Counted from the stretch's first letter, positions 4,301-33,469 are shown. The stretch is 33,906 bases of DNA from an uncultured Muribaculaceae bacterium (GCA_964617705.1 CAZTXU010000002.1:1-33906); one strand, 5' to 3'. Notes: generated by a model not told the origin, from the letters alone. Made by a program: numbers and translations.

Positions 4301-7300
4301 CAAATTGAGAAAGGAAACCAAGATCTCCCTCTGCAAATTCTCCTTCTTCAAGAGCGCCATTCTGTATTTTATCTAAAATTTCTTCAGTAGTTAATTTTTG
4401 TCCGCCAAACTGCCACGTTTTACCTTTTGTTTCTGCGATAAAACCTTCTATACTATCAGCATTAGTAACTTTTTCATTCAAATCGCCCTGCATTTCGCCT
4501 AAAATACTCGCAACATTTCCATCAAGGGAACTGAGTAAATTCTCCAACGGCGCAATATAAGTATATTCATCAATACCAGTCCAAACAAAATTACTTGTAT
4601 CAATGCCCTGTGCTTTTAACTTATCTACCTCTTCTTTCGTAAATTTAACTTCTTCATTCTCAATTTTTTCTTCAACTGTTTTTATTGTATCGCTAAGACC
4701 TGTAAGTTTATTCTGTAATTCTTCAAAAGTTAAATTGCGCGATGCCTCGGCACATTCCATAAGGGCTTGAATTAGACTATCGTCTATAACAGCGCCCATT
4801 TCTTCAAGAGATTTGATTGTTTGTTCTATACTGTTTTTGTCGCTGTAATCTGTTGTTGATAAGATTGAGCTTGCGATTTTTTGTTCGTCTGCATTTAAAC
4901 CTTGAGAGTTATATAGTTTTTCGATAATGCTTAATGCTTGTTGAGCATCACCACCACGACCATGTATACCGATTAAGGCATCGGAAAATCCTTTAACTTG
5001 TTCTGCTGAAAAATTGTTTTTATCAATAAACTTATCAAAAGCAGAAAATTCATTACTATCTGCGCCAAAATATTGCTCAAGATTATCAGTAGCAGTCTTA
5101 AATGTTTCTGAACCAAGTAAGATATTATTATAAATTTTTTCAAAATCTATATATTGACTTATCTCTTCCCAAGCCTCTGGTCCTATTACATCAATATATT
5201 CTTTTTTTGCTGCTTTTATATCTTCAGCTGCAATAACACTTTCAAACTCGGCAATATCTTCACTAGTCATTCCTTTGCCTTCAGTAGTCAAAGAGCCGAG
5301 CAAAGCATCAAAATTATTTATATCTTTTGACCCTTTCTCAACAGAAATCTGCAATCCTTCTAACGCGCCAGCTAGTTCTTCCATTTTTGTAGTAAGTTCT
5401 GCTGTAGCATCTTGCGCAGCCAAAATATTTTTAATAGTTTCTTCTGACAGAGACTCATCTTTTAATTGTGCATTTACTTCATCTACCTTCATTCCTTGAG
5501 ATTCAGCATATCGTATTTTCAGATCTTCTGATAATCCCCAACCATAGCTATCAATCTTTTCTTGTATAAGATCTTGATAATCTTTACTTCCACTAACTAC
5601 ATCTTGAGTATATTGTGAAAACTCAGAGTTACTAAGCACATCACTACCAGATATCATTGTAGAATACATCGCTTCTGTGCGAGCATCTTCAGCCAATTTT
5701 GCTGACATGGCAGAAGTAGAAAGTTCATCAAAAGCATCTCCAAGTCTTTGTGTTGAATTAAATACATTTTCAAAAATATCAGAGTTAAAACCTAAATTTG
5801 TAAAGATCTTTTTTGCTTGTTCCTCATTATTTGCTAAGTTTTCAGAATTTATTCCTGCTTCCGCAAGTTTAGCTATAAAATTACCATATTGATCAAAAGT
5901 TAAACCACCAGTATCCATACTTTGACGACCAAGTTCAACAACATTTGTTCCAAACCAGTCCTCTGTAAAGGTTCCTAAAAAAGTGCTAAGATCGTATGAT
6001 AATTGATTTCCCCATTCCCACGCAGCCTCTCGGGCAGGTAGACCTAATCCAAAGAGTTCTCCCTGTCTTTTAGAAAAGATATTTTCAAACTCTATTTCTT
6101 GTTGAAGTCCAGCAACTTGTGATTGTAATGCGTTTTGAGCAATTAAAGAATTTGTAAGTTTATTTTGTTGTCCTTCGAGTATGACTTCAAAACCTTGTTC
6201 TTTAATATTTAAAGCACCGTTTTCGGTAGTATTAATATATTCAGCTAATTTTGGATATTTATTGATTAATTCTAATACTTGCTGATTAATTTCTATTAAT
6301 TTTTCTTTCCATTCAGCAGTGCCTTTAGTTAAACCTTCAAAAGTATTTTGAAGTTCCTCTAATCCAGATTTAGAATCAGCAATTTCCTCCATTGCTGTTT
6401 TCGCTTTTTCCGCTTCATCGCTTAAAGCGGAGATTTGTTCATTTAGTTTTTCTATTTTTGCTTGTTGCCCAAGAGAGTTTATTGCTACTCCAAGCGCTAT
6501 TATCGCTCCAGTAATTGCAACTATAGTCAAAACAATTGGGTTATGTAAAAGTCCTAATAGCGATGCTTGTACTTTTTTAGACATTGACATAAAGATGTTT
6601 CCGACTATTCCCGCAATTGGACCAAGCATCATAAGCACACTGCCAAGCTGTCTAACAGTATCAATGGCTTTTTTATCTGCTCCTACTGCCTCCATTATAC
6701 TCGCAACGCCTTGGAGTGCAAGACCAGCAAGAGTTGCGCCTGTGGATACGGTTTTGAAGCTTGCGGAATATTTTTTTAATTTTACTCCTGCTTTTTCGGC
6801 CTCTTCTCCTGTATATTTAATTTCATAGCCGGTTCCCTCTAAGGCTTGATTAATAGCTTTATCATCAATACCATCTTCAAAAGCTAAAAGCGCAGCAATT
6901 TTATTTTTTACTTCTGGGGGAACAGCCATATTTTTTACTTTTCCCCAAATACTATCTTTGAATTTTTCTATTCCCTCGGGTTTAATATTGGAAAAATCTA
7001 TTTGTTCTAAACCAAAAGAATCAATTTTCTTAATCCCTAATCTCTCTAAAAGACTATTTCCAAAGTCCTTCTTACTTATCTTGTCTATTCCTTCCTCGAG
7101 TCCTTCCCCAAGGTTCTCAGCAACACTCCTACCTGCTCGTTGAGCTTCTTCTTCAGTTACCTTTCCGCCCAATCCAAGCTTTAACTTGGCAAAAATACCA
7201 CCTTTTCCTAAAATGGTTTTTCCTATTTTAAATGCGCCGAACGCCATTCCTAAACTTAAAATACTTTTTGCCAAGCCATTTCCGCCAGAAACTGCGTCTA

Positions 7301-9848
7301 ATATTCCATTAATAGTATTTAAAAAGCCAGTAAGTAAATCAACCGCGCCTTTAATAAATTCATTATTAGCTAATCCCATAACGAATTGATCCCAAGCATT
7401 TTTAAGTTGAGTTAATTTAGCTTCCAAACTATCTAAGGTTTTACTAAACTGTTCTTGGCTCGCGCCAGCACTAGAATATGCTGAATCAACTAACTCTTGT
7501 GTTCGAGCATAATCACTCATCATAGCAATAAAACGGGATTGTTGTCTTGATCCGGCAGCAGTCGTAGCTATATATCTTTGTGTTGTAAAATCAAGAGTAT
7601 CCCATTTTTTAGCCAGTTTGAGTAAAATTTGATCCAAACCCTCTGTGCCAGCAAAGAACTCGTTCATTGAGATTCCAACCGATCTTAAAGCACCTTGAAT
7701 TTTATTTACATCTATTATTTCGCCTTCTTCATCTTCTCCTGTAAGCAAACCTTTATCAACTAAAGATTTAACTTCGGAGAATCTTGCTATGATTGTCTTC
7801 ATAGCTGTACCAGCAGTCTCTGGAGCCTCACGCGTTGTCTCTATTATCTGTGCCAAGAGCGAAGCAGTTGTCTCAAACTCCATATTAGCAGAATTTGCGA
7901 TTGAGGCAGTTTTTGACATGGCAACACCAATTTCGTGAGTGTCCGCCGCAGTAATTGCTGCCAACTTAGAATAAACATCATTAACATTCTGTGCCGATGC
8001 TTCATTTAATTCCATGTTAAAACCACGAAGAGCTGCGGTCATTAAGTTTGTAGATTCAACAGCATCTATATTAGCGATTCTAGCCATTTTCGTGGTTTCA
8101 ATACCAAGTTCCATGGCTTCTTTAGTTTTTAGTCCTTGCTGATAATATAATGTGGTAGAACCATAAAGGTCATTGATAGATGCGCCCAATTTATTCGCTT
8201 CTGAAGCATATCTTGGTAATTGTTCCCACATATCGTTTACAGAGAAATCTGTTACAACAGCAGTCTCTGTCATTGTGGCGTCAAGCTGTTTTACCGTTTC
8301 AAAAGCAGAACGAACTGCTCTTTTGAAGAGTTCTATTGCATTTCCAATAGAGAAAAATTGTAAAACCTGATTATGTAATTGATTTACTTCATCATTAACT
8401 CGTTTAATTTCTTTTGATTGATTACCAGCTTTTAGTATCTCCGCTTGGAGCTGTTCCATATATTCGGATGCCTCATCAGTGTTTAACTGTAAAGATTCTA
8501 ATTCTGTTTTTAATTTTTCAAGCGCGGGGTCATCCAATTTCTGTATAGCATTACGTATTCGTTCAAGTCCTTCGGTAGTTTTAAGCGTATCAGCATCGAA
8601 ATTTAAACTATCATCAATTTTTCCTAATGCTGTTGTTATCTCTTTTAATTCTTCTTCTAGTTTTTTAGCTTCATCAGTATATTTTTGAAGGTCTTTTTCT
8701 TTTTTATTATAAGCTCCTTGTTTTGTATTAAGCTGTTTATCAATATTGGCTAAATCTTTTGAAGCTTGCGCACTTTTCTTTTTTGCTTCAGCCTCTTTAT
8801 TTAATGCATTAATATTATTTTCAATTACTTGTGAATAATCCTTTTCAGATACTCCAAACTCTTCCATAGAAAAACCTTGTTGTTTGAGTTGGTTTGGAAT
8901 ATCTTCATTACTATATTTATTAAAGTTAGATAATACAGCACCAAGTTTTCTTGATTTTTCTAATTCGGCGTTTTTTTCTTTTAAAATCTGTAGCGATTTG
9001 TATTCATTCTCTAGCGTAGCTTGAGCTTGTTCTTTTAATTTAGTGTTTGAATCATATGATTTTGTTCCTTTTCTTGGAGTATATTTTTCCCATTCTGAAT
9101 AGGTTTTTCCTTTATATGTTAATTCATCTTTTTCATTTACGCTTACATTTTTATTAGTTAAAGCCTTAGTTCTAGCTTTCTCCGCCTTGCTTTTAGCTGT
9201 TGTTATATCATGGGTAGTGGCTAATTCATTTTGTTTAGCTTTAATGTTGGTTCTTAAAGTATCTTTTAAGTTTTTTACTGCTTTTGTAGTATCGTTTGCT
9301 GTATCTCTTATTTTGTCATATTCATTAATAATATTCTGATGGTCAAGTTTTTTATTACGTAGCTCATCTATTTCTTTTCCAAGTTCTTGAATATCATTTG
9401 TTGTTTGTGTTATTGAGTTATTTTTTGTGTTTAATTTTCCCCATGTAGCTATAAACTCTTTAAGTTTATCCGATGCTTTATTAACTCTATCATCAAAATA
9501 ATCTGGAAATAATTTTTTAGCATCTTTTGTTGTTAAAGAAGTTAAATCTCCAAATACTCTCTGTATTTCTCTGTATGATTTAACGACATCTTCAGCAGTT
9601 TTTAATGCTTCTTTTCTATTAATAAAGTCTATTTTTTCATTATTTGTGAATTGTCTTAATTTTGAAACTCCATCTTTATACTTGTCAAATAATTTAGAAA
9701 GACTGTTTCCAGCGCCTTTGGTAAAGTCAATTTCCACTTGTCCGCCTTTTTCAAGACCGTTTTTAATACCAGAAACAACTTTATCCATATTTGTCAGTAT
9801 AGCATTTACTTCAAAATCCAAATACATAGTTTTTCTATTGCTACTCAT
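1350..9848 (-). CDS. Tail tape measure protein, 2832 aa, with a C-terminal peptidoglycan-binding repeat
   Basis: It has a TP901-type TMP core (MTETAVVTDF...YYQQGL...AALRGF...TAADTHEIGVAMSK...TAGTAMKTIIARF). Long coiled-coil segments and hydrophobic glycine-rich segments are present. A GGSSGGSGGGGGGGGGGS hinge is encoded at about 3256-3309. A PG_binding_1-like repeat (LKVDGIYGNNTKNAVKILQRAIGVTVDGYYGPNTRNA) is encoded at about 1690-1850. There is a GGAG RBS. Confidence 0.9.
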   Translation of the reverse strand: MSSNRKTMYLDFEVNAILTNMDKVVSGIKNGLEKGGQVEIDFTKGAGNSLSKLFDKYKDGVSKLRQFTNNEKIDFINRKEALKTAEDVVKSYREIQRVFGDLTSLTTKDAKKLFPDYFDDRVNKASDKLKEFIATWGKLNTKNNSITQTTNDIQELGKEIDELRNKKLDHQNIINEYDKIRDTANDTTKAVKNLKDTLRTNIKAKQNELATTHDITTAKSKAEKARTKALTNKNVSVNEKDELTYKGKTYSEWEKYTPRKGTKSYDSNTKLKEQAQATLENEYKSLQILKEKNAELEKSRKLGAVLSNFNKYSNEDIPNQLKQQGFSMEEFGVSEKDYSQVIENNINALNKEAEAKKKSAQASKDLANIDKQLNTKQGAYNKKEKDLQKYTDEAKKLEEELKEITTALGKIDDSLNFDADTLKTTEGLERIRNAIQKLDDPALEKLKTELESLQLNTDEASEYMEQLQAEILKAGNQSKEIKRVNDEVNQLHNQVLQFFSIGNAIELFKRAVRSAFETVKQLDATMTETAVVTDFSVNDMWEQLPRYASEANKLGASINDLYGSTTLYYQQGLKTKEAMELGIETTKMARIANIDAVESTNLMTAALRGFNMELNEASAQNVNDVYSKLAAITAADTHEIGVAMSKTASIANSANMEFETTASLLAQIIETTREAPETAGTAMKTIIARFSEVKSLVDKGLLTGEDEEGEIIDVNKIQGALRSVGISMNEFFAGTEGLDQILLKLAKKWDTLDFTTQRYIATTAAGSRQQSRFIAMMSDYARTQELVDSAYSSAGASQEQFSKTLDSLEAKLTQLKNAWDQFVMGLANNEFIKGAVDLLTGFLNTINGILDAVSGGNGLAKSILSLGMAFGAFKIGKTILGKGGIFAKLKLGLGGKVTEEEAQRAGRSVAENLGEGLEEGIDKISKKDFGNSLLERLGIKKIDSFGLEQIDFSNIKPEGIEKFKDSIWGKVKNMAVPPEVKNKIAALLAFEDGIDDKAINQALEGTGYEIKYTGEEAEKAGVKLKKYSASFKTVSTGATLAGLALQGVASIMEAVGADKKAIDTVRQLGSVLMMLGPIAGIVGNIFMSMSKKVQASLLGLLHNPIVLTIVAITGAIIALGVAINSLGQQAKIEKLNEQISALSDEAEKAKTAMEEIADSKSGLEELQNTFEGLTKGTAEWKEKLIEINQQVLELINKYPKLAEYINTTENGALNIKEQGFEVILEGQQNKLTNSLIAQNALQSQVAGLQQEIEFENIFSKRQGELFGLGLPAREAAWEWGNQLSYDLSTFLGTFTEDWFGTNVVELGRQSMDTGGLTFDQYGNFIAKLAEAGINSENLANNEEQAKKIFTNLGFNSDIFENVFNSTQRLGDAFDELSTSAMSAKLAEDARTEAMYSTMISGSDVLSNSEFSQYTQDVVSGSKDYQDLIQEKIDSYGWGLSEDLKIRYAESQGMKVDEVNAQLKDESLSEETIKNILAAQDATAELTTKMEELAGALEGLQISVEKGSKDINNFDALLGSLTTEGKGMTSEDIAEFESVIAAEDIKAAKKEYIDVIGPEAWEEISQYIDFEKIYNNILLGSETFKTATDNLEQYFGADSNEFSAFDKFIDKNNFSAEQVKGFSDALIGIHGRGGDAQQALSIIEKLYNSQGLNADEQKIASSILSTTDYSDKNSIEQTIKSLEEMGAVIDDSLIQALMECAEASRNLTFEELQNKLTGLSDTIKTVEEKIENEEVKFTKEEVDKLKAQGIDTSNFVWTGIDEYTYIAPLENLLSSLDGNVASILGEMQGDLNEKVTNADSIEGFIAETKGKTWQFGGQKLTTEEILDKIQNGALEEGEFAEGDLGFLSQFASGTTALPENTVASEFSKQQLFNKVKTYLESNWGIQGRVADENRANNEQFIKDQLDFKYSNLTPDSVGNIDYIGALKEGANQEGANKIAEINAMTRALDAQIASEKGLNVEYERTKRFLKENGRELDISDNHLKQLLINTRNTEKAQDKLNSTLDENIEAFKAGKDSGGKYDAALERITDSAKKVFGDSITTDFVEQNKELFEQLEQGGEIGAEAFRKIGEAISNKYLSTLPEVANKTTEIQNIVSELDGKDFSLTGTADVSDIINKLIDAGMTAEQVAQYIKGMGYTLDWDITGYKNIVVGYTPSGPVFKQVPIYSIEATKTDGSGTNNWGGSSGGSGGGGGGGGGGSEEDTKTWKNPYDEFYNTTEKINELLRQRNKLEREFNKLASRSATSTEQLNKLLKQQLSNLRQQADSQNYLISGKQKQLQNAINATMSVEEGRTISFQEAYAKAGGSGNISQYGIYNTSTGQIEINWSAIEALQGQDAEQGSAVEEYISYLESISSELEEAQDALEEIEDSIIEIIDTQLEARIELITTLKDALVEKYQMQIDELSELNNTISDSNDKILNGIQESIDLERQIRDNTKTEEDIAEKEARLAFLRRDTSGANDLEIKQLEEELADARESYSDTLIDQEVDRLSKQNEEAAEARQKQIDLMQAQLDYWQSSDYFNNIIESMNKSEAMALWKEIQDFNDKTEAEKISLMKEWNELWNKGNSGSPELAAADSMYKGDKYTLTDAKGKKYTGMSYNSSNDTWSNGKVTISGSDIAKADINSNTITTNKDLSPKPANNTNTTPPPAPKTGYFAKINSYARPQAQMPANEVKYLQQALNAAFGTGLKVDGIYGNNTKNAVKILQRAIGVTVDGYYGPNTRNATLSSKYKAYASGGLADYTGIAWLDGTKSKPELVLNSKDTQNFIVLKDILSDILKGNSTKTKNSGDNYYDFHITVEEIANDYDVEKMIQKIKEEINNDARYRNVNAINLLR

Positions 9849-31307: not shown

Positions 31308-31424
31308 ATGATGAGTTTATATGATTTGATTGAGGGTATGTTAGAACTGCTTGGAACTATTTACTATACTGGCGCGATGACAATAGAGGAAGAAAAACTT
31401 CTTAACAAGTATGAAGAAGTATAG
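31308..31424 (+). CDS. Possible micro-protein (38 aa)
   Basis: The ATG directly abuts the upstream TAA (GAGGAGGAAGAGTAAATG provides an SD-like run). The translation is MMSLYDLIEGMLELLGTIYYTGAMTIEEEKLLNKYEEV. Confidence 0.35.
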   Translation: MMSLYDLIEGMLELLGTIYYTGAMTIEEEKLLNKYEEV

Positions 31425-31461
31425 TATAATTATTACGAAAAAGAACTTAGGAGTGAAGAAA

Positions 31462-31641
31462 ATGAGAATTGAAAAAAGAGAAATGATTTTTCTTTCACAA
31501 GAAGAAAGGGATACTTGGGATGTTTTTGACAAAATTTTAGAAGGAATTGAAGGAGAAACTAACGATCCATACATTATTGACACTATCTGTGAAATTACTG
31601 ATCATTTATCAGACTTATGGGAATTAGTGGAGGTTGAATAA
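31462..31641 (+). CDS. Small acidic protein (59 aa)
   Basis: The ATG lies after TAGGAGTGAAG. The ORF-track start at 31411 overlaps the previous ORF. Confidence 0.55.
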   Translation: MRIEKREMIFLSQEERDTWDVFDKILEGIEGETNDPYIIDTICEITDHLSDLWELVEVE

Positions 31642-31668
31642 AAGGACTTAACAAAGTCCTTTTTTTTA
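31640..31668. terminator. Bidirectional intrinsic terminator
   Basis: AAGGACTT-aaca-AAGTCCTT is flanked by an A-run on the left and TTTTTTATT on the right, so it is usable from either strand. Confidence 0.7.
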
Positions 31669-31679
31669 TTTATTTTAAT

Positions 31680-31698
31680 TTAGACGTATTACGTCTAA
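31680..31698. repeat. Early-region palindrome copy 13 (8-bp arms, spacer ATT), with no promoter beside it
   Basis: TTAGACGT ATT ACGTCTAA. No TTGACA-type box follows on either strand. Confidence 0.9.
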
Positions 31699-31922
31699 TT
31701 AAGGGATTTCTCGGAATCGAACCGATATATCTTGCGCGCAGACCATAACCATTATGTCTCCCCGAGAACTCAGAAATCAAATAGATTTTTTTCGGCGTTC
31801 CGTCTTTGTTCTCTCAGTAAAGAAATTGGCTTTGTTTTAGAGAAATTACCTTTAAGGACTTTTCCGTTTGGGTCACTCTTGGCGCCTCCTGCTCCTGCTT
31901 TGTCGTCCACCAACCTTTACTG
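31699..31922 (-). ncRNA. Candidate promoter-driven non-coding transcript ending in a tRNA-like T-arm fragment (function unknown)
   Basis: It lies downstream of a consensus minus-strand promoter. No ORF here has a well-spaced SD apart from a 17-codon micro-ORF. The 3' part reads ...TCGGTTCGATTCCGAGAAATCCC on the minus strand, a T-loop consensus. It is G+C-richer than the flanks. The boundaries are approximate. Confidence 0.3.
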
Positions 31923-31929
31923 TAGTTAT

Positions 31930-31958
31930 AGTATAACAAAATTTATATTTATTGTCAA
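31930..31958 (-). promoter_or_regulatory. Leftward promoter of the inverted cassette
   Basis: On the minus strand: TTGACA (31958-31953), 17 nt, TGtTATACT (-10 hexamer at 31935-31930). Palindrome copy 14 lies 7 nt upstream in that orientation. Confidence 0.6.
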
Positions 31959-31965
31959 CAGATGA

Positions 31966-31986
31966 TTTAGACGTATTACGTCTAAA
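31966..31986. repeat. Early-region palindrome copy 14 (spacer ATT)
   Basis: 9-bp arms (10 bp with the flanking pair). It serves the minus-strand promoter. Confidence 0.95.
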
Positions 31987-31996
31987 TTTTATTTTT

Positions 31997-32232
31997 GTCA
32001 AATTTTTTCTTTTTGTCAAATTCTACGACGTTGCCGGCGCGACGTCAAATTTTATGCGTTGTCAAATTTTAATAAACCAGCTACAAACCAGCTACACCAG
32101 CTGTCAAATTTTGAATCAGCTGCGAAATCAGCTACAAATAAAAATTTGACGTACAATCTCTTTATATTTATATTTCCCCTTTTATTTTAACACAAATTAA
32201 GCTGGATTTCAAATTATTAGAGCTGTCAAATT
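31997..32232. repeat. Iteron cluster: seven copies of (T/C)GTCAAATT plus five or six copies of CAGCT(A/G)C; candidate replication origin or protein-loading site
   Basis: GTCAAATT occurs at 31997, 32015, 32044, 32061, 32103 and 32225, with an inverted copy at 32143-32150. CAGCT cores occur at 32079, 32090, 32099, 32118 and 32130. CGACGT appears twice, flanking GCCGGC, at about 32026-32046. No credible ORF is present. Confidence 0.5.
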
Positions 32233-32264
32233 TAAAATCTACTTAAATAAAAAAACTTTAAAAT

Positions 32265-32293
32265 TTGAAAATCTTTTAAATTTTAGTTATAAT
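32265..32293 (+). promoter_or_regulatory. Twin promoter A
   Basis: TTGAAA, 17 nt, TATAAT, then ATATATAGAAAATGAGAAAGG. Near-identical to twin B. Confidence 0.5.
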
Positions 32294-32384
32294 ATATATA
32301 GAAAATGAGAAAGGGTGGTGCTAAGCTCCTTTGTGATTGTGGCACCTTAATGCACGAGTAGTTAAGGGGTCGTCGCCCTAAAAT

Positions 32385-32413
32385 TTGAAAAAAAATAAAA
32401 ATTCAGCTATAAT
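32385..32413 (+). promoter_or_regulatory. Twin promoter B (drives the 32516 gene)
   Basis: TTGAAA, 17 nt, TATAAT, then ATATATAGAAAGTGAGAAAAGG. It lies exactly 120 bp downstream of twin A. Confidence 0.55.
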
Positions 32414-32515: not shown

Positions 32516-32869
32516 ATGACGAAGAGAGATTTCTATGTAGCAATCGCAAATGGTGAGATGAATGACGAAGTAAAGGTTGCTGCCGCAGAGTACATCGCAA
32601 AAATGGATGAGGCAAACGAGAAACGCAAGCACACTCTGTCCAAGAAACAGGAAGAGAATGAAGCAATCAAGGCAGAAATTCTGGGACACCTTGATACCGA
32701 AGCAAAAACTGCTACGACTATCGGAGAGCTGATGGGTATTTCTACGCAGAAAGCGTCGGCACTGCTTAGACAGCTTGTAAATGACGGCAAGGCTACTGCA
32801 ACCGAAGTTAAGATTCCGAAGAAGGGTACTCAGAAAGCTTATATCGTAAATTTTTCACATGAAAACTGA
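32516..32869 (+). CDS. Winged-helix-like DNA-binding protein, paralog B (117 aa)
   Basis: It has a GGAGAAAGAGG RBS. MTKRDFYVAIANGEMNDE...ISTQKASALLRQLVNDGKATATEVKIPKKGTQKAY aligns along its whole length with the 27268-27612 product. Confidence 0.6.
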   Translation: MTKRDFYVAIANGEMNDEVKVAAAEYIAKMDEANEKRKHTLSKKQEENEAIKAEILGHLDTEAKTATTIGELMGISTQKASALLRQLVNDGKATATEVKIPKKGTQKAYIVNFSHEN

Positions 32870-32944: not shown

Positions 32945-33469
32945 ATGTGGAAACCAATATATAGTTTTGAAGATTATTTAATAAATGAAATCGGGCAAAT
33001 TAAATCTTTAAAAACAAATCGGATTTTGTCTCAACGATATGACTTGAAAGGGTATTTAATAGTTAGCTTAACTAAAAATAAAAAACAAACTACTAAATCA
33101 GTTCATAGGTTGTTAATGGAAACTTTTAATCCCTGCGATGGAATGAAAGAACTGACTGTCAATCACATTAATCATATTAAAGATGATAATCGTTTAGAAA
33201 ATCTGGAGTGGATGTCTAATAAAGACAATGTAAAAGAAGCCTACAAAGCTGGACTCCATAAAAATAAACATAAAGGTGGTAATAATAGATTACCAGTTCG
33301 TTGTATAGAAACACAGCAAATTTATTCAAGTAATGCAGAAGCAGCGCGGGCTGTGGGAATTAAATCTTATGGGAAAATTGGAGTAGCAGCAAAAGATCAA
33401 ACAAAAACTTGTGGAGGATATCATTGGGAATATTTAGATAAAACTGAATATAAAAAATTAATAAGATAA
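32945..33469 (+). CDS. HNH homing endonuclease (NUMOD4-like N-terminus, HNH_3 core, C-terminal NUMOD1/IENR-like HTH), 174 aa
   Basis: The N-terminus is WKPIYSFEDYLINEIGQIKSLK. The HNH core is VNHINHIKDDNRLENLEWMSNKDN. The C-terminal HTH-like segment is VRCIETQQIYSSNAEAARAVGI. It has a GGAGG RBS. Confidence 0.8.
   Translation: MWKPIYSFEDYLINEIGQIKSLKTNRILSQRYDLKGYLIVSLTKNKKQTTKSVHRLLMETFNPCDGMKELTVNHINHIKDDNRLENLEWMSNKDNVKEAYKAGLHKNKHKGGNNRLPVRCIETQQIYSSNAEAARAVGIKSYGKIGVAAKDQTKTCGGYHWEYLDKTEYKKLIR

Follow-up and report, generated by a model that had tools for sequence, protein, structure and literature searches.

An optional palindrome-bounded cassette in a gut siphophage, with a candidate structured RNA gene and a tRNA-like 3' module

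What is encoded where a strong leftward promoter lies between two copies of a repeated phage palindrome and reads into a G+C-rich unit with a tRNA-like end? The question is raised by positions 31680–31986 of a 33,906-nucleotide stretch from an uncultured Muribaculaceae bacterium (GCA_964617705.1 CAZTXU010000002.1:1-33906; the whole stretch is called the window here), which is part of a large low-G+C tailed phage, a siphophage from gut bacteria. A first-pass annotation had offered three possibilities: a novel structured small RNA, a degenerate or truncated tRNA, or a tRNA 3'-end mimic such as an attP-type core. On balance, the segment between palindromes 13 and 14 appears to be a self-contained optional cassette encoding a structured non-coding RNA with a 3' tRNA-mimic module. 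It is quite probable that the unit is a real non-coding RNA gene; that its 3' part works as a tRNA mimic is suggested more tentatively. The novel structured small RNA is the best supported of the three original options, given that the open reading frame (ORF) is not kept, the promoter is conserved and the 5' junction covaries.

The palindrome-bounded unit and its 5' junction

The cassette is delimited by the following features.

31967–31985, no strand: palindrome copy 14, upstream cassette boundary, centre ATT
31930–31958, minus strand: sigma-70-type promoter, with -35 TTGACA at 31958–31953, a 17-nt spacer, TG-n-TATACT, and the -10 at 31935–31930
31680–31698, no strand: palindrome copy 13, downstream boundary, centre ATT, beginning 6 nt after the acceptor-like helix
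31640–31663, no strand: terminator hairpin AAAAGGACUU-AACA-AAGUCCUUUU, ending the converging gene 31411–31641

The palindrome TTAGACGTNNTACGTCTAA occurs 14 times in the window, where none would be expected by chance, and is present in 59 IMG/VR stretches. Its 12 rightward copies follow a regular order of gene, terminator hairpin with T-run, palindrome, 7–25 nt, TTGACA, 17 nt, TATAAT-like -10 and gene, with a separate terminator ahead of the palindrome in 11 of them; in L074 the palindrome is followed by TTTTTT. Comparison with these 12 copies bears out the earlier description of copy 14, 7 nt, TTGACA, 17 nt and TG-n-TATACT as the same layout flipped. The minus-strand promoter, which starts 7 nt past copy 14, has 11 of the 12 consensus bases plus an extended -10 (TG), and the predicted transcription start lies near 31923. 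The coordinates of a leftward promoter and a unit of ~225 nt bracketed by copies 13 and 14 proved correct, as did the ATT spacer in both copies, the lack of a promoter next to copy 13 and the higher G+C content of the unit (0.36–0.41 versus 0.22–0.31 in adjoining sequence). On the minus strand the hairpin at 31640–31663 reads as a stem GGACUU/AAGUCC followed by UUUUAUU, and it likely also stops the leftward RNA.

The RNA unit is an optional cassette, present or absent exactly at the palindromes. Five variants were recovered from gut metagenomes (the window, L001, L002, L009 and L089). L019–L023 represent the empty site, in which the same iteron flank is followed by a single palindrome and then a terminator, promoter and unit both being absent; this is exactly what remains after removal of the promoter, the RNA and the second palindrome. 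One sequencing-run contig joins 31698 to 31967, loose ends in the sequencing runs reveal at least four different neighbours downstream of the unit, and identity among relatives follows a mosaic pattern. The unit is mostly absent from relatives that carry a 93%-identical sigma-like gene or the winged-helix gene 32516–32869, for which 668 homologues were found.

Conservation is uneven along the cassette. Identity to L009, L001 and L002 is 97.5–98.8% in the 3' 80 nt, 91–96% in the 5' 148 nt, 90–94% in the promoter and 73–84% in the flanks. In the five-way alignment, variation affects 1 of 33 promoter columns, 3 of 76 columns of the tRNA-like 3' part (with no indels) and 28 of 150 columns of the 5' and middle parts, 7 of these being indel columns; the difference in variable columns between the 3' part and the rest is significant (Fisher p=0.0018). 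Nowhere in the unit is conservation higher than in the 3' module.

Upstream of this module, the predicted RNA is organised as follows.

31815–31922, minus strand: 5' domain, three-way junction of 108 nt, from covariance model R1 and comparison with L077
31922–31915 with 31822–31815, minus strand: P1, 8 bp, 5 of 8 pairs changed on both sides relative to L077
31911–31909 (GGU) with 31830–31828 (GCC), minus strand: P1b, change from U-G to U-A in the comparison with L077
31908–31905 (GGAC) with 31859–31856 (GUCC), minus strand: P2, change from U.U to G-C in the comparison with L077
31855–31837, minus strand: P3 hairpin, one position showing G-U, A-U and G-C
31764–31814, minus strand: middle segment, with a weakly supported predicted helix, GAGAAC (31813–31808) with GUUCUC (31769–31764)

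The three-way junction formed by the 5' 108 nt shows covariation with L077 758–874, the one distant homologue found by an nhmmer search of palindrome-bearing IMG/VR stretches. L077 shares only the 5' domain of the window RNA and lies in a co-oriented cassette (terminator, palindrome, promoter, ~290 nt, terminator, palindrome); R1 scores it at 47.8 bits. In the model-fitted alignment of the window with L077, all 21 pairs are kept, 7 of them with double changes, a result equalled in 0 of 500 shuffles (slid controls, 0–1), and a P1-length helix between the L077 flanks arises in 0.4–1.2% of flank shuffles. Among four close variants alone covariation is not significant, 273 of 500 shuffles reaching the observed score. 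The middle segment consists of small hairpins with a variable-length A-run inside the predicted helix; one-sided changes in L002 keep the pairs, and one pair is broken in L009.

Two observations on the palindromes may be added here. The P3 hairpin (TTAAAGGTAATTTCTCTAA, 31837–31855, minus strand) matches the palindrome TTAGACGTAATACGTCTAA at 14 of 19 positions with equal spacing; it could be a degenerate copy of it, or bind the same factor weakly. In L089 all three palindromes (178–198, 463–483 and 940–960) read TTAGATG...CATCTAA, not TTAGACG...CGTCTAA; in each copy the two half-sites are altered together, which is what gene conversion would produce, or recognition by a sequence-specific factor encoded in the genome.

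The tRNA-like 3' module

The 3' part contains three elements.

31703–31779, minus strand: tRNA-like module, acceptor-like GAUUUCU (31778–31772) with AGAAAUC (31711–31705)
31759–31740, minus strand: hairpin
31725–31711, minus strand: T-arm UCGG-UUCGAUU-CCGA, with a consensus T-loop

The consensus T-loop, the D-arm-like AGAC...GUCU hairpin and the two mutually exclusive 7-bp helices noted previously are all present as described. The T-arm has the consensus loop UUCRANY closed by G53-C61 (UUCAAUU in L002), and its 11-mer GGTTCGATTCC occurs once in the window, at 31723–31713, with a chance expectation of 0.04 per window. Either GATTTCT (31778–31772) or TTCTCGG (31768–31762) can pair with CCGAGAAATC (31714–31705). 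The minimum-energy fold of the isolated 3' domain combines the acceptor-like helix, one long irregular hairpin and the T-arm; a five-arm, class-II-like fold was rejected at -10.1 versus -17.4 kcal/mol for the minimum-energy fold. The three changes found in this domain among the variants fall in a hairpin loop, in a linker and at T-loop position 57 (G to A), a position at which tRNAs accept either purine.

The anticodon arm of a tRNA has a 5-bp stem and a 7-nt loop with U33 and a purine at position 37. The best drawing for the module gives a mismatched stem UUAUG/CGCAA with C at position 37, and RNAalifold yields a weak candidate, GUCU/AGAU with a 7-nt loop. The statement that no anticodon arm is present therefore stands for a canonical arm and is too strong for weak candidates, which can be drawn by RNAalifold and by ARAGORN at an 85% threshold. 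At that threshold ARAGORN returns a 77-nt 'Gln-CUG' cloverleaf with mismatched stems at 31703–31779. This score proves nothing, because random sequence scores alike: at this composition, 34 kb of it yield 0.5 matches with the threshold at 90% and 14 with it at 80%.

Searches with established tRNA and tmRNA models gave no clean match. ARAGORN found nothing in the window in default, mitochondrial, tmRNA or intron modes, and Rfam gave no match at gathering scores; at E=10 on 601 nt, the only tRNA-clan match was one of 8 bits to 15 nt of the tmRNA T-arm. A CRISPR-DR26 match (12.5 bits, 31770–31786) was dismissed and falls in a variable stretch, and a hammerhead-like CUGA...GAAA motif was set aside by eye, its core not fitting. 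The unit has no CCA, resume codon or tag frame of a tmRNA. The Y RNA motif GNCGAAN0-1G is absent, the sole GNCGAA being GCCGAAAAAAA, which lacks the closing G, and no Ro60 (TROVE) domain was found among 10 early ORFs scanned against Pfam in the window, which is part of the genome. The 21-mer GGTTCGATTCCGAGAAATCCC, comprising the T-loop and 3' strand, has two sites in a collection of 185,579 genomes, one per species; neither lies in a tRNA gene, and both were judged to be chance matches. Against 50,697 phage records, BLASTN of the 451-nt unit gave no match and that of the 92-nt 3' part gave T-arm-length matches only; exact patterns in IMG/VR returned nothing, or four chance matches in unrelated high-G+C contigs, and no antisense target longer than 13 nt occurs within the window. 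From the ARAGORN and Rfam negatives and the 21-mer search it follows that the unit is not a gene for a tRNA or tmRNA, and not copied from a host tRNA end either. The proposal of a degenerate or truncated tRNA fails as far as a tRNA is concerned, and survives in a weaker form, as a tRNA-like module in which the unit is more conserved than elsewhere.

Several observations weigh against a structured RNA with a 3' tRNA mimic. The covariation of the 5' domain comes from one distant sequence and a model-fitted alignment, and the folding energies are unremarkable (z = -1.2 to +0.6). The 3' domain varies too little to show covariation, which leaves its fold a prediction, and in the full-length RNA a GGGGA/UCCCU closure is ~5 kcal/mol better than the acceptor-like helix. 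The acceptor and T-stem stack amounts to 7+3 or 6+4, that is 10 bp and not 12, and Rfam at E=10 on 111 nt produced no tRNA, tmRNA, YrlA or other model match. The sequencing runs that contain the unit consist of assembled contigs without strand information, and contigs from RNA libraries also cover the promoter and flanks. Two features of the ORF, considered below, belong here as well.

Some of these points are shared by an alternative that we regard as rather unlikely, namely that the RNA is real and its tRNA likeness functionless, either the relic of a decayed phage tRNA or a chance T-arm hairpin, with the conserved 3' sequence serving otherwise, for example as a protein-binding site or RNA target. 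It would account for the failure of every tRNA model, the relaxed ARAGORN score within the random-sequence range, the 10-bp coaxial stack, the competition among three closing helices and the cost of the five-arm tRNA-like fold, 7 kcal/mol above the minimum. A neutral relic, however, would not make up the 76 nt in which the unit is best conserved, and an exact T-loop 11-mer is hardly expected in a window of this size. A further argument comes from an unrelated tRNA mimic found at the same distance from a palindrome in two related phages.

L074 10224–10319 and L086 ~9410–9505: tRNA-Sec-like element of 95–99 nt, sequence unrelated to the window module

Among 1094 palindrome sides, T-arm-like hairpins within 45 nt upstream of the palindrome were limited to the window unit, L074, L086 and one trivial T-run hairpin; a T-arm-like hairpin in L087 was judged incidental. 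The L074/L086 element directly follows a 110-residue gene, in place of the usual terminator, and adopts a clean class-II tRNA fold (-50 and -41 kcal/mol) with an 8–9-bp acceptor, a long variable arm, a perfect T-arm and a D-stem that covaries between the two (CGCCCC/GGGGCG versus GUUCC/GGGAC). The loop of its 'anticodon' hairpin has only 3–4 nt. Rfam scores it as tRNA-Sec at 30.3 bits, below the cut-off of 47 bits, and default ARAGORN misses it. Between the end of the element and the palindrome are 6 nt, just as for the window module. That two unrelated elements of tRNA shape, neither of them decoding, occupy the same position speaks against an accidental tRNA likeness in the window module, and our results indicate that non-decoding tRNA mimics recur in this phage group.

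The course envisaged is as follows. Host RNA polymerase would transcribe ~225 nt to palindrome 13, or ~285 nt to the shared terminator. The 3' module, with its 7-bp acceptor-like helix, consensus T-arm, one further arm and no anticodon loop, would imitate the acceptor, T-arm and elbow of a tRNA, and would probably be bound or cleaved by host enzymes that recognise tRNA shape, with RNase P as a candidate on the 5' side of the helix and RNase Z or the CCA-adding enzyme on its 3' side. Such processing would leave the RNA with stable, well-defined ends and free a tRNA mimic of ~77 nt that does not decode. This mimic could serve as a decoy to a host factor that binds tRNA, or provide the 5' domain with a handle.

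A broader idea is offered as speculation, with a low expectation that it holds: that phages of gut Firmicutes type carry a so far undescribed modular family of non-coding RNAs on palindrome-bounded mobile cassettes, composed of a conserved 5' three-way junction (as in the window and L077) and exchangeable 3' modules that include an anticodon-less tRNA mimic, with unrelated mimics deliberately placed 6 nt upstream of the palindrome. If so, host factors that process or bind tRNA would be linked, through this position, to whatever recognises the palindrome, and the mimic might act as a decoy against host defences directed at tRNA.

The open frame, the iteron flank and the orientation of the unit

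Three other explanations concern the unit as a whole, the first of them involving an open frame.

31770–31913, minus strand: open frame of 46–47 codons inside the 5' and middle domains, most likely untranslated

This frame is, as previously noted, the longest minus-strand ORF, with a GTG start at 31910 and AAAGG only 3 nt from the start codon (overall 0–3 nt); nearby true genes have AGGAG-type sites. We consider it quite unlikely that the unit is a small protein gene, encoding 34–46 residues with the core SDPNGxVLKGxFSKTKP or using the 15–17-codon frame MVMVCAQDISVRFREIP in the 3' domain after GGGGAG. The 46-codon frame is the only one open; its core is indel-free, and relative to L077 synonymous codon differences number 5 in this frame and 1 and 0 in the two others, 12 of 30 residues being identical. 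L009, having lost the upstream frame, has gained an in-frame ATG overlapping the new stop, and the MVMVCAQDISVRFREIP micro-ORF is open in all five variants. The synonymous differences and the new ATG of L009 are the two points against a non-coding unit referred to above.

Other evidence is difficult to reconcile with translation. There is no ribosome-binding site at a workable distance, and the frame is shifted or restarted in three of the five variants, its N- and C-terminal parts being frameshifted: in L002 after residue 30 (likewise in variants from 3 of the first 4 sequencing runs compared), in L009 by a stop after 10 codons and a restart at the newly created ATG, and in L089 on both sides of the core. 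Every placeable core substitution among close variants alters the amino acid. Two of the five synonymous sites relative to L077 lie in helices P1 and P1b with pairing preserved, and in L077 the frame runs through promoter, terminator and palindrome, as no real gene does here. The 46-residue product had two matches among 5.8 billion proteins and two in a phmmer scan of 1.84 billion representatives; three of these four are translations of the same unit (L001, L002 and L089) and the fourth is a repetitive 2285-residue protein, so that these two very large searches yield no protein family. The first ATG of the micro-ORF is gone in L001, L009 and L089. The unit thus lacks an intact frame in relatives, a ribosome-binding site and homologues beyond its own variants, and the earlier description of it as apparently non-coding is upheld.

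The second explanation turns on the iteron array beside the cassette. At 31990–32240 the window holds 8–9 iterons AAATTTGACA/G, each with a -35-like TTGACA, together with paired (T/C)AGCTG repeats and, at 32027–32046, a GC-rich inverted repeat. The array, which probably serves as a replication origin or a regulator-binding array, is kept next to the winged-helix gene 32516–32869 in L001, L009, L011, L013, L016, L019, L027 and L089. Palindrome-less relatives have another strong leftward promoter in the same slot (TTGACTTGACA ... TGnTATnAT).

L011 3640–3760, L013 2400–2500, L016 2390–2450 and L027 2290–2390, minus strand: leftward promoter and hairpin-RNA slot, unit absent

The RNA of this slot would be ~70 nt long; a further iteron and a GCCCGGGC hairpin lie within it, and a terminator comes next.

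It is conceivable, with little prospect of being right, that leftward transcription beside the array is what matters, for instance in origin opening, and that the transcribed sequence is largely a passenger. The unit adjoins the iterons in four of its five variants (the window, L001, L009 and L089), and the other promoter with its hairpin RNA in L011, L013, L016 and L027 would fit such a role. A passenger, however, would not stay 98% conserved in its 3' part. L019–L023 have neither promoter nor unit at the site, and the unit lies away from the iterons in L002, as does the homologue in L077.

Third, recombination between the palindromes could flip promoter and unit, making the cassette an invertible switch, which we hold to be very improbable. 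Identical palindromes form the boundaries, a flip would bring terminator, palindrome and promoter back into their usual order, and the L077 homologue is co-oriented with its neighbours. Against this, in each of the five variants the unit faces away from the protein cassette(s) that lie upstream of its promoter, and neither a flipped contig nor a strand-changing joint was present among the assembled contigs of eight sequencing runs. No recombinase was found among 28 window ORFs scanned against at least one family library. The observed polymorphism is gain and loss of the whole unit, and the inversion suggested in the first-pass annotation is not shown. The inverted placement itself holds in all five variants with respect to the upstream cassettes and does not extend to L077; in L002 a co-oriented promoter lies downstream of the unit.

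Finally, an attP-type core copied from the 3' end of a host tRNA gene for integration, recommended by the likeness to a T-arm and acceptor 3' strand, is scarcely tenable, as no tRNA with this 3' end exists among the genomes searched with GGTTCGATTCCGAGAAATCCC, no integrase was found in the window and the sequence belongs to a promoter-driven unit.

Related systems and genomic setting

The preferred reading, an optional cassette encoding a structured RNA with a tRNA-like 3' module, can be compared with several known systems. In T4-type phages, small non-essential early genes are separated by a repeated motif in which a stem-loop is combined with a strong sigma-70-type promoter (promoter-early stem-loops, PeSL), and this motif bounds insertions, deletions and replacements between related phages (PMC2839356, PMC4122927). 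The window likewise has a repeated promoter and stem-loop between small early genes, and its indels and replacements are repeat-bounded, as seen in the empty site of L019–L023, the mosaic identity and the 31698–31967 joint. Unlike PeSL, it belongs to a siphovirus with Gram-positive-type hosts, its palindrome is distinct from the true terminator, which lies ahead of it in 11 of the 12 rightward copies, and one cassette carries an RNA in place of an ORF and faces the opposite way. PeSL-like cassette shuffling is thereby extended beyond T4-type phages.

YrlA-type Y RNAs of bacteria and phages are non-coding RNAs of 100–200 nt with a non-decoding module that imitates the D-arm, T-arm and acceptor stem of a tRNA, and some are cut by RNase P and receive CCA (PMC4201824). 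The window RNA resembles them in its candidate non-decoding tRNA-like module; it differs in having no Rfam match and no GNCGAAN0-1G motif, in an element order that is that of a normal tRNA and not permuted, and in that no known Ro60 gene lies near the unit among the 10 early ORFs scanned against Pfam. tRNA-Sec-like allo-tRNAs with 8/4 or 9/3 acceptor/T branches occur in bacteria and phages, some being proposed regulatory non-coding RNAs (PMC5389517). The L074/L086 element is similar to these in its 8–9-bp acceptor, long variable arm and tRNA-Sec score of 30 bits, whereas the window module has a branch of only 10 bp and no variable-arm signature, and both lack the 7-nt anticodon loop. The tRNA-like domain of tmRNA also pairs an acceptor helix with a T-arm in the absence of an anticodon arm; CCA, resume codon and tag frame set it apart from the window unit. 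Since the features of YrlA, allo-tRNAs and tmRNA were sought where possible and not found, the unit would represent a new RNA family of a known general kind.

tRNA-like 3' processing signals are known from the mascRNA at the 3' end of MALAT1 and, in the T4 tRNA cluster, from stable RNAs C and D; in such systems, tRNA-processing enzymes cut a tRNA-shaped 3' element and thereby set the ends of both products. The window unit would similarly close a longer predicted transcript with a tRNA-shaped element that may be processed. Few phage-encoded small RNAs are known, and to our knowledge almost none from gut phages of Firmicutes type. With a conserved promoter, a covarying fold, a constrained tRNA-like module and both natural carriers and non-carriers, any function of the candidate RNA is directly testable by phage comparison.

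As to the phage itself, the minus-strand genes of the window encode a 2832-residue tape-measure protein with a lysin domain, a portal, a terminase and a distal tail protein (Dit), and small cassette-organised plus-strand genes extend from 24 kb onward. The portal is 22–30% identical to those of 130–170-kb siphophages of Enterococcus, Brevibacillus and Bacillus, with Lactococcus phages also among the 64 records that match it. Near-identical DNA is found in pig and human gut metagenomes and in wastewater, and related complete-looking contigs measure 105–116 kb. Pfam and PHROGs scans of the neighbouring proteins revealed no tRNA- or RNA-related function.

Homing-endonuclease-type genes occur among the cassettes. 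One with HNH_3 and NUMOD4 domains lies at 32945–33469 of the window, and T5orf172-like genes are present at L002 73–387 and L009 2662–2976, that of L002 being directly upstream of the RNA unit and diverging from it. Upstream of the winged-helix gene, at 32265–32413, are two near-identical tandem rightward promoters (TTGAAA, 17 nt, TATAAT); the ~90-nt segment between them is G+C-rich, differs among relatives and could be another small-RNA slot. On the minus strand of L036, at ~5990–6090, lies a tRNA-like sequence of 96 nt in which the acceptor stem GGAGATGG/CCATCTCC has 8 bp and the D-stem 6 bp, and which encodes its CCA; ARAGORN calls it His-GTG at a relaxed threshold only, and it may be an 8/4- or 8/5-type allo-tRNA.

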